A stretch of 64,000 bases of DNA, taken from assembly GCF_000026545.1 (NCBI RefSeq), contig NC_011601.1. One strand, written 5' to 3'. A program made the translations under genes and the position numbers. Below the pieces are notes generated by a model. It was given only the letters and a program-made list of their open reading frames with translations, did no database searches and was not told the DNA's origin. Source of the DNA: Escherichia coli O127:H6 str. E2348/69. GTDB lineage: Bacteria > Pseudomonadota > Gammaproteobacteria > Enterobacterales > Enterobacteriaceae. Shown here one piece after another: positions 13,603-14,422 of the stretch; the stretch's first letter is position 1, and each line of letters begins with the position of its first letter.

Positions 13603-13833
13603 AGCGTGCGTGTTCCAGTTGCGAATTACGAAGAAAAGCGTTTCAATTCAATAGATTGTTGTAATTATCAACTATTTTTGAATTAACGACTGGCAGTATA
13701 TCATTGAAACGGACCTGAAAGCAGCCAAAGCGGTCGCGAAAATGTAAAATTGTTGTTGGATTGTGCCATTTTATCGTTCTGCGCTGTGATCTGGCTGTAA
13801 CAATACTTTTTCAAAATGCATTACGGATAACAT

Positions 13834-14055
13834 CTATGGTCCTGTGCAAAACATGTTATCGGTGATGAGATCGGTTTGAAACTGACTGAGTTGGTTTTCC
13901 ACGCCGCCGATGGGCGGGTTGCGCAGTAAAAGCTGTGGATAGTGAGTTTTAATCGCCCGATAGATGACAGGAAGGACCAGGGCCCCGACCGAGGGGGGGC
14001 AGATTAAGCACTTTCGCTGCATTAACGATTCCTTTATGGACATATGCAACTTCAA
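13834..14055 (-). pseudogene. possible remnant of the LysR-family regulator gene found between lipA and lipB in K-12 (ybeF)
   Basis: only a 73-codon TTG-initiated frame with an in-frame stop 21 codons upstream; 820-bp lipA–lipB spacer has no intact gene; homology not verified. Confidence 0.2.
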
Positions 14056-14422
14056 AATAGTCAGAAGGGTAAGATCAATATTTCGTAAGGTTGTAAATAT
14101 TTGTGGTTTACCTTCTGACTACTTTCTGCTTAAACAGGGTTCAATTTTATTATTACTATCCACGCACTTACTCCAATTTTATTCATGAAAAAATAATATT
14201 TAAAAAAATTACAATAATCTTATGTCTAATTGGGACGGAACGCTTTTGCTCACCATGGTCAATCATTTCAATGAGTTAATCAATTAGGTGGGCTACGGAG
14301 CAAGGCGTAGCATCGCATTTCTGCAAGTGATAAAGAAAATATACAAACGCGAAGGAGATGTAAAGCATTAGCAGGTATTATGAGTAATGACCCAGTGTAA
14401 ATTGGGCCATTGATGTATGGAA

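Follow-up and report, generated by a model that had tools for sequence, protein, structure and literature searches.

The question raised by this locus is what became of the regulator gene expected between lipA and lipB. The window analysed (the whole stretch of DNA, 64,000 nucleotides of E. coli sequence) contains both lipoate genes, and an initial annotation made from the sequence alone had stated that K-12 carries the LysR-type gene ybeF between them, had seen no intact regulator gene here and had proposed its deletion or decay. Each of these points is borne out by the present analysis. In K-12-type genomes an intact 954-bp ybeF, on the lipA/lipB strand, lies in a spacer of 1420 bp; bounded by the lipA start (13602) and the lipB stop (14423), the spacer in the window (13603-14422) measures exactly 820 bp and holds no full-length ybeF in any frame. 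The order on the minus strand is lipB, the ybeF remnant and lipA. Since all three share that strand in that order, the spacer lies 3' of lipB and 5' of lipA. The genes ybeD and dacA precede lipB on its strand, and tatE lies beyond lipA, convergent with it. The E. coli E2348/69 sequence NZ_CP059840.2 was 100% identical to the window across the 4220 bp compared. The genes and native intergenic regions that frame the remnant are as follows.

12637-13602, minus strand: lipA (lipoyl synthase), intact, 321 aa; from the open reading frame list and the RefSeq annotation of the identical E2348/69 locus
13603-13810, minus strand: native lipA-ybeF intergenic region, 208 bp, the upstream region of lipA, spared by the deletions; from gap-free alignment with K-12
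14164-14422, minus strand: 259 bp of AT-rich native sequence between lipB and ybeF, formerly the promoter region of ybeF, 3' of lipB; from alignment with K-12
14423-15064, minus strand: lipB (octanoyltransferase), intact, 213 aa; from the open reading frame list and RefSeq annotation

The complete gene found in K-12-type genomes provided the reference. K-12 YbeF has 317 amino acids and matches the YbeF family model NF008554 of NCBIfam end to end with 610 bits; Pfam places HTH_1 (PF00126) at residues 31-89 and LysR_substrate (PF03466) at residues 116-316. Published work on lipoate gene regulation (PMC4398509) reports the same gene, likewise flanked by lipB and lipA, in Salmonella, Klebsiella and Enterobacter. 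The long form is taken as ancestral because it encodes a complete family member and because this published synteny extends to those genera. Disruption of the long form was also seen separately: in strain SH21PTE31 (locus L008, 609-2338) an IS1 element is inserted in an otherwise long, K-12-type ybeF, an independent inactivation.

The TBLASTN comparison and the breakpoint alignment that had been suggested with the initial annotation both gave definite results. Searching the whole 64-kb window with K-12 YbeF returned two matches only, both in the spacer and both strong (E values of 2e-26 and 2e-15), and no second YbeF-like copy or paralogue was found in the window by this search. The alternatives named in advance, an interval without detectable similarity to ybeF or a full-length homologue in another frame, were not encountered. 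The similarity to ybeF is significant, position and strand are orthologous, and the flanks are collinear with K-12, the pattern of a pseudogene by descent. Alignment placed deletions of 397 bp (deletion 1) and 204 bp (deletion 2) on direct repeats, and the remnant was mapped by aligning the three length forms of the locus, then seven strains, together with the TBLASTN matches. Read from the lipB side, the remnant consists of the following parts.

14056-14163, minus strand: ybeF codons 1-36 from the original GTG start; translation VDSNNKIEPCLSRK, a stop, then SEGKPQIFTTLRNIDLTLLTI, and TBLASTN
14119-14121, minus strand: nonsense codon TAG at ybeF codon 15 (TCG elsewhere); from comparison of 7 alleles
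14054-14057: site of the -1 frameshift, 4 consecutive A in place of the 5 in intact ybeF; from the 7-strain alignment
13994-14056, minus strand: ybeF codons 37-57, the first part of the LysR HTH, in a shifted frame only; translation FEVAYVHKGIVNAAKVLNLPPL, and TBLASTN in frame -1
13989-13999: deletion 2 junction, 204 bp lost, one CCGAGGGGG copy kept, ending in a run of 7 G
13849-13992, minus strand: ybeF codons 126-173, the start of the effector-binding domain; TBLASTN, and NF008554 positions 117-175
13844-13848: deletion 1 junction, 397 bp lost, one copy of the GTGCA direct repeat kept
13811-13843, minus strand: C-terminal tail, the last ~10 codons and the original TGA stop (ending IDVIRNAF before the stop); translation VLHRTIDVIRNAF followed by the stop, and TBLASTN to YbeF 297-317

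Five lesions are visible in this map: the two deletions, the -1 frameshift in the A-run, the variable G-run and the nonsense mutation at codon 15. The surviving pieces corresponding to YbeF residues 1-36 and 126-175 retain 92-97% protein identity, codons 174-175 falling inside the deletion 1 junction repeat, and the C-terminal tail is not in frame with the preceding piece. All four B2-type alleles in the 7-strain alignment are one A short in the A-run, and of the 7 alleles compared the window alone has the T at 14120 that creates the stop. The surviving start of the HTH in codons 37-57 reads FEVAYVHKGIVNAAKVLNLPP. The initial annotation had noted the absence of an N-terminal HTH region; this is true of the open frames, none of which encodes the PF00126 domain, but DNA for codons 1-57 survives at 13994-14163, the rest of the HTH having gone with the 204-bp deletion. 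Within codons 1-36 there is also a 15-nt inverted repeat (14054-14068 and 14111-14125, 93% complementary, with 42 nt between the arms), which predates the decay, as K-12-type genomes have it too; it might represent an mRNA hairpin, a regulator binding site or chance.

The undeleted forms reveal how the two segments may have been lost. In K-12, GTGCA occurs at positions 1942 and 2339 of the aligned locus (L003), exactly 397 bp apart, edging the segment missing from the window; its removal took away roughly codons 176-307, most of the effector-binding domain. In strain 81009, which lacks the 397-bp segment and retains the other, CCGAGGGGG occurs at positions 2087 and 2291 (L002), exactly 204 bp apart, and is the sole repeated 9-mer in that remnant (shuffled sequences gave a mean of 0.54 pairs). 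Deletion 2 took out codons 58-125, which encode the remainder of the HTH, the linker and the first part of the effector domain. Each lost segment is thus edged by direct repeats in the undeleted form, with one copy left at each junction. Both deletions probably arose between short direct repeats by replication slippage or by some other RecA-independent route; the arrangement of the sequence argues strongly for this at the 9-bp repeat of deletion 2 and weakly at the 5-bp repeat of deletion 1, because a five-base microhomology is common by chance.

Each junction also has features of its own. The G-run at the deletion 2 junction (13993-13999) has 7 G in the window, 6 in UTI89-type alleles and 5 to 7 in undeleted strains, and is a slippage-prone homopolymer. 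Beside the deletion 1 junction, six bases at 13838-13843 are hypervariable, far above their flanks: TACTC(C) in K-12, GGTCCT in the window, GACCCC in strain 81009 and GGCCCT in VTB96929v. This variability goes unexplained by a simple one-step deletion. A quasi-palindrome (13819-13833 and 13853-13867; K-12 L003 1917 and 2348) straddles the same junction. Its arms in K-12 bracket both GTGCA repeats and are complementary at 12 of 15 positions, which the G at 13862 in the window raises to 13 of 15; a hairpin formed by these arms could have brought the two repeats together.

The same lesions recur widely. A 1220-bp query across the spacer found a match in 5424 of 5426 complete E. coli genomes, and the matches take three forms: about 1220 bp in one piece (E2348/69, UTI89), about 1424 bp in two pieces (81009 and others) and about 1820 bp in three pieces (K-12-type genomes, O157:H7). 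The 397-bp segment is missing in 1053 of the 5426 genomes, and the deletion 1 junction, assayed with a spanning 81-mer, is present in 1049. A 203-bp segment is missing in 392 genomes and present at only 90-95% identity in 648, and the deletion 2 junction (71-mer) was found in 386. All 386 fall among 1054 genomes with the same allele type. Carriers of deletion 1 include CFT073, NU14, ATCC 25922, Nissle 1917, UTI89, EC958 and other O25b:H4-ST131 strains, and deletion 1 occurs without deletion 2 in NC101 and in 81009, which is treated as ST131. The named carriers are presumably classical phylogroup B2 strains and, judged by them, the deletion 1 lineage would correspond to phylogroup B2.

This recurrence also bears on whether the short spacer could be a sequencing or assembly artefact of one genome, a reading considered because homopolymer runs (G7 and A4) sit at two of the lesions. 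Many laboratories and sequencing platforms contributed the independent complete genomes that share the junctions (386 and 1049), and losses of 204 and 397 bp are not homopolymer miscounts. The artefact reading can for practical purposes be dismissed.

A separate question is whether the remaining DNA encodes anything. The 73-codon TTG-initiated frame reported in the initial annotation was found at 13834-14055 on the minus strand, and the in-frame stop said to lie 21 codons upstream is the TAG at 14119-14121, separated from the TTG by 21 sense codons. That frame had been described as the only one in the spacer; it is present, but the plus strand also carries a 74-aa ATG frame (13964-14188) and a 58-aa frame, both antisense to the remnant. 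These two were considered as genes and set aside, as neither has an NCBIfam match. The homologous core of the 73-codon frame is ybeF codons 126-175. Its product scores 75 bits against NF008554 (E 4.5e-21), below the family cut-off of 277 bits, and no Pfam domain was found in it; of the substrate-binding domain (PF03466) just residues 126-175 and the last ~10 are left in the spacer. No uninterrupted ybeF frame can be read through the remnant, which is broken by the TAG at codon 15, by the -1 shift (14054-14057) and by deletion 1, whose 397 bp are not divisible by three.

Some function might nevertheless be imagined for a truncated protein made from this frame, or from the longer frame of ST131-type alleles: an effector-domain fragment without DNA binding, perhaps a dominant-negative partner of other LysR proteins. 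The 73-codon frame is open and 48 of its residues are 92% identical to YbeF 126-173. In 81009 (L002 1932-2465) the loss of one A from the A-run and the gain of one G in the G-run compensate: 177 codons are open from the original GTG, and 21 residues in the HTH are scrambled. Because these two frameshifts cancel, the frame was not immediately closed by the early decay. Against a functional product, the frame in the window accounts for about 50 residues of a LysR substrate domain of roughly 200, its fortuitous TTG start leads into 20 codons of frame-shifted nonsense, the TAG cuts off the original start, and the family score and lack of a Pfam domain are as given above. UTI89-type alleles are one G shorter at the junction and so have a different frame, and non-synonymous changes outnumber synonymous ones. 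A functional truncated protein is accordingly judged very improbable. On the sequence evidence a functional YbeF probably cannot be made from this allele, and the remaining DNA would amount to inert spacer together with the two native intergenic regions.

The substitution counts referred to were obtained by comparison with K-12. Over 252 bp aligned in frame, the remnant has 3 synonymous and 7 non-synonymous differences, including one stop; the codon 126-173 segment has 3 synonymous and 4 non-synonymous. The neighbouring genes differ at synonymous positions only (6 in lipA and 9 in lipB, 15 synonymous and 0 non-synonymous together), and divergence from K-12 is about 4% in the remnant versus about 1% in lipA and lipB. 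The remnant alleles also vary among themselves in G-run length, in small indels and in the private TAG. Although the counts are small, they indicate relaxed constraint on the remnant relative to its neighbours, a pattern consistent with neutral decay.

The intergenic DNA on either side of the remnant is close to that of K-12. The 208 bp at 13603-13810 show 1 difference and zero gaps, and 14164-14422 differs by 1 bp in length and has a GC content of 0.29-0.40. An AT-rich region upstream of lipB had been proposed as the consequence of decay. The region is AT-rich (GC 0.29 at 14050-14274), but it lies 3' of lipB, and the same stretch is found in K-12; it represents the native 5' end of ybeF with its promoter region and was not made by the deletions. 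A promoter newly made by the deletions was considered and rejected: the consensus scan returned 3 promoter-like sites versus 2.8 expected by chance, none at a junction, and the minus-strand hexamers at 14204-14176 and 14364-14336 are no more than chance would give. No terminator was found in the spacer by the promoter and terminator scan. A structured RNA or sRNA was likewise rejected, as an Rfam scan of 12400-15600 at a permissive E value returned nothing in 13603-14422. Outside the spacer, a hairpin at 12570-12610 between the convergent tatE and lipA drew several weak, sub-threshold Rfam matches (leader peptides, STnc50) and is most simply a shared bidirectional terminator.

Taken together, the spacer is almost certainly a unitary pseudogene of the LysR-type transcription factor gene ybeF that decayed in steps; the observations behind this reading are homology, lesions, breakpoints, distribution and the relaxed constraint on the remnant. 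The ancestral order would have been ybeD-lipB-ybeF-lipA on one strand. In a first step, the ancestor of a large lineage would have lost 397 bp between the GTGCA repeats and one A from the A-run; most of the effector-binding domain would have gone with these losses, and the HTH would have been scrambled. A sub-lineage would then have lost a further 204 bp between two CCGAGGGGG repeats and, in the E2348/69 line, codon 15 would finally have become TAG. Deletion 2 is nested within the deletion 1 group, and from this nesting the order is deduced as deletion 1 with the A-run frameshift, then deletion 2, then the nonsense codon.

Whether the loss was neutral or selected is a further matter. If YbeF loss was itself favoured, by rewiring motility or metabolic control in B2, the later lesions would be clean-up. 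Fixation of the first lesions extends over about 1050 genomes, including many well-known pathogenic and commensal B2 strains, and where ybeF is kept intact it looks constrained (K-12 and O157:H7 differ at 11 synonymous and 4 non-synonymous positions). An effect of loss is also plausible, in that deletion of ybeF in K-12 lowers lrhA expression and raises the FlhDC flagellar regulon, with no direct binding of YbeF to lrhA detected or predicted (PMC9068703). On the other side, one ancient event passed down through a clade looks alike whether neutral or selected, the sporadic disruption by IS1 in SH21PTE31, an unrelated strain, suggests that the gene is dispensable, and a literature search returned no paper tying ybeF to a phylogroup and none of relevance on ybeF as a pseudogene, phylogroup marker or lineage pattern. 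Selection for the loss is considered unlikely. The bolder proposal, that selection for YbeF loss, through altered motility control, helped early on to shape the inferred B2 lineage, is regarded as a shade less likely still. The B2 lineage includes most extra-intestinal pathogenic E. coli and also EPEC.

Stepwise decay of ybeF is therefore kept as the preferred account, and it has practical consequences. For annotators, the gap between lipA and lipB is a decayed ybeF rather than an overlooked gene or a novel element, and lipA, lipB and the flanking regions are intact. The nested deletions make clean markers that are simple to type: about 19% of complete genomes carry the first, which marks a large lineage, and about 7% the second, which marks a sub-lineage within it. 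About a fifth of sequenced E. coli are natural ybeF nulls, which is relevant to work on YbeF, a poorly characterised regulator so far linked just to lrhA/FlhDC expression, in K-12.

The remnant is already known through RefSeq and is a case of ordinary lineage-specific gene decay. The PGAP pseudogene H4J01_RS18215 of E2348/69 (NZ_CP059840.2) is the same DNA and maps to 13843-14163 of the window, its upper bound coinciding with the start of codon 1 in the map above at 14163; it is recorded as a YbeF-family pseudogene with the note 'frameshifted; internal stop; incomplete'. That feature omits the 33-bp C-terminal tail (13811-13843), the breakpoints and the history. RefSeq likewise annotates a ybeF pseudogene in UTI89, 81009 and others. 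The ST131-type pseudogene of 81009 (DNNLJILF_RS20690) has the 397-bp deletion and the -1 frameshift in common with the window; unlike the window, it keeps the 204-bp segment, about 94% identical to K-12, and has no TAG at codon 15. The nearest relative of YbeF considered was CitR (YbdO), a LysR regulator near the citrate lyase genes that gives YbeF its second-best NCBIfam match and is described as a paralogue with 30% identity (PMC9068703); it occupies a separate locus outside the window. The closest comparison is with K-12 ybeF itself (b0629). The remnant equals it in chromosomal position, strand and flanking intergenic regions, and differs from it in lacking about 600 of the 954 bp and in being broken by the -1 shift and the TAG.
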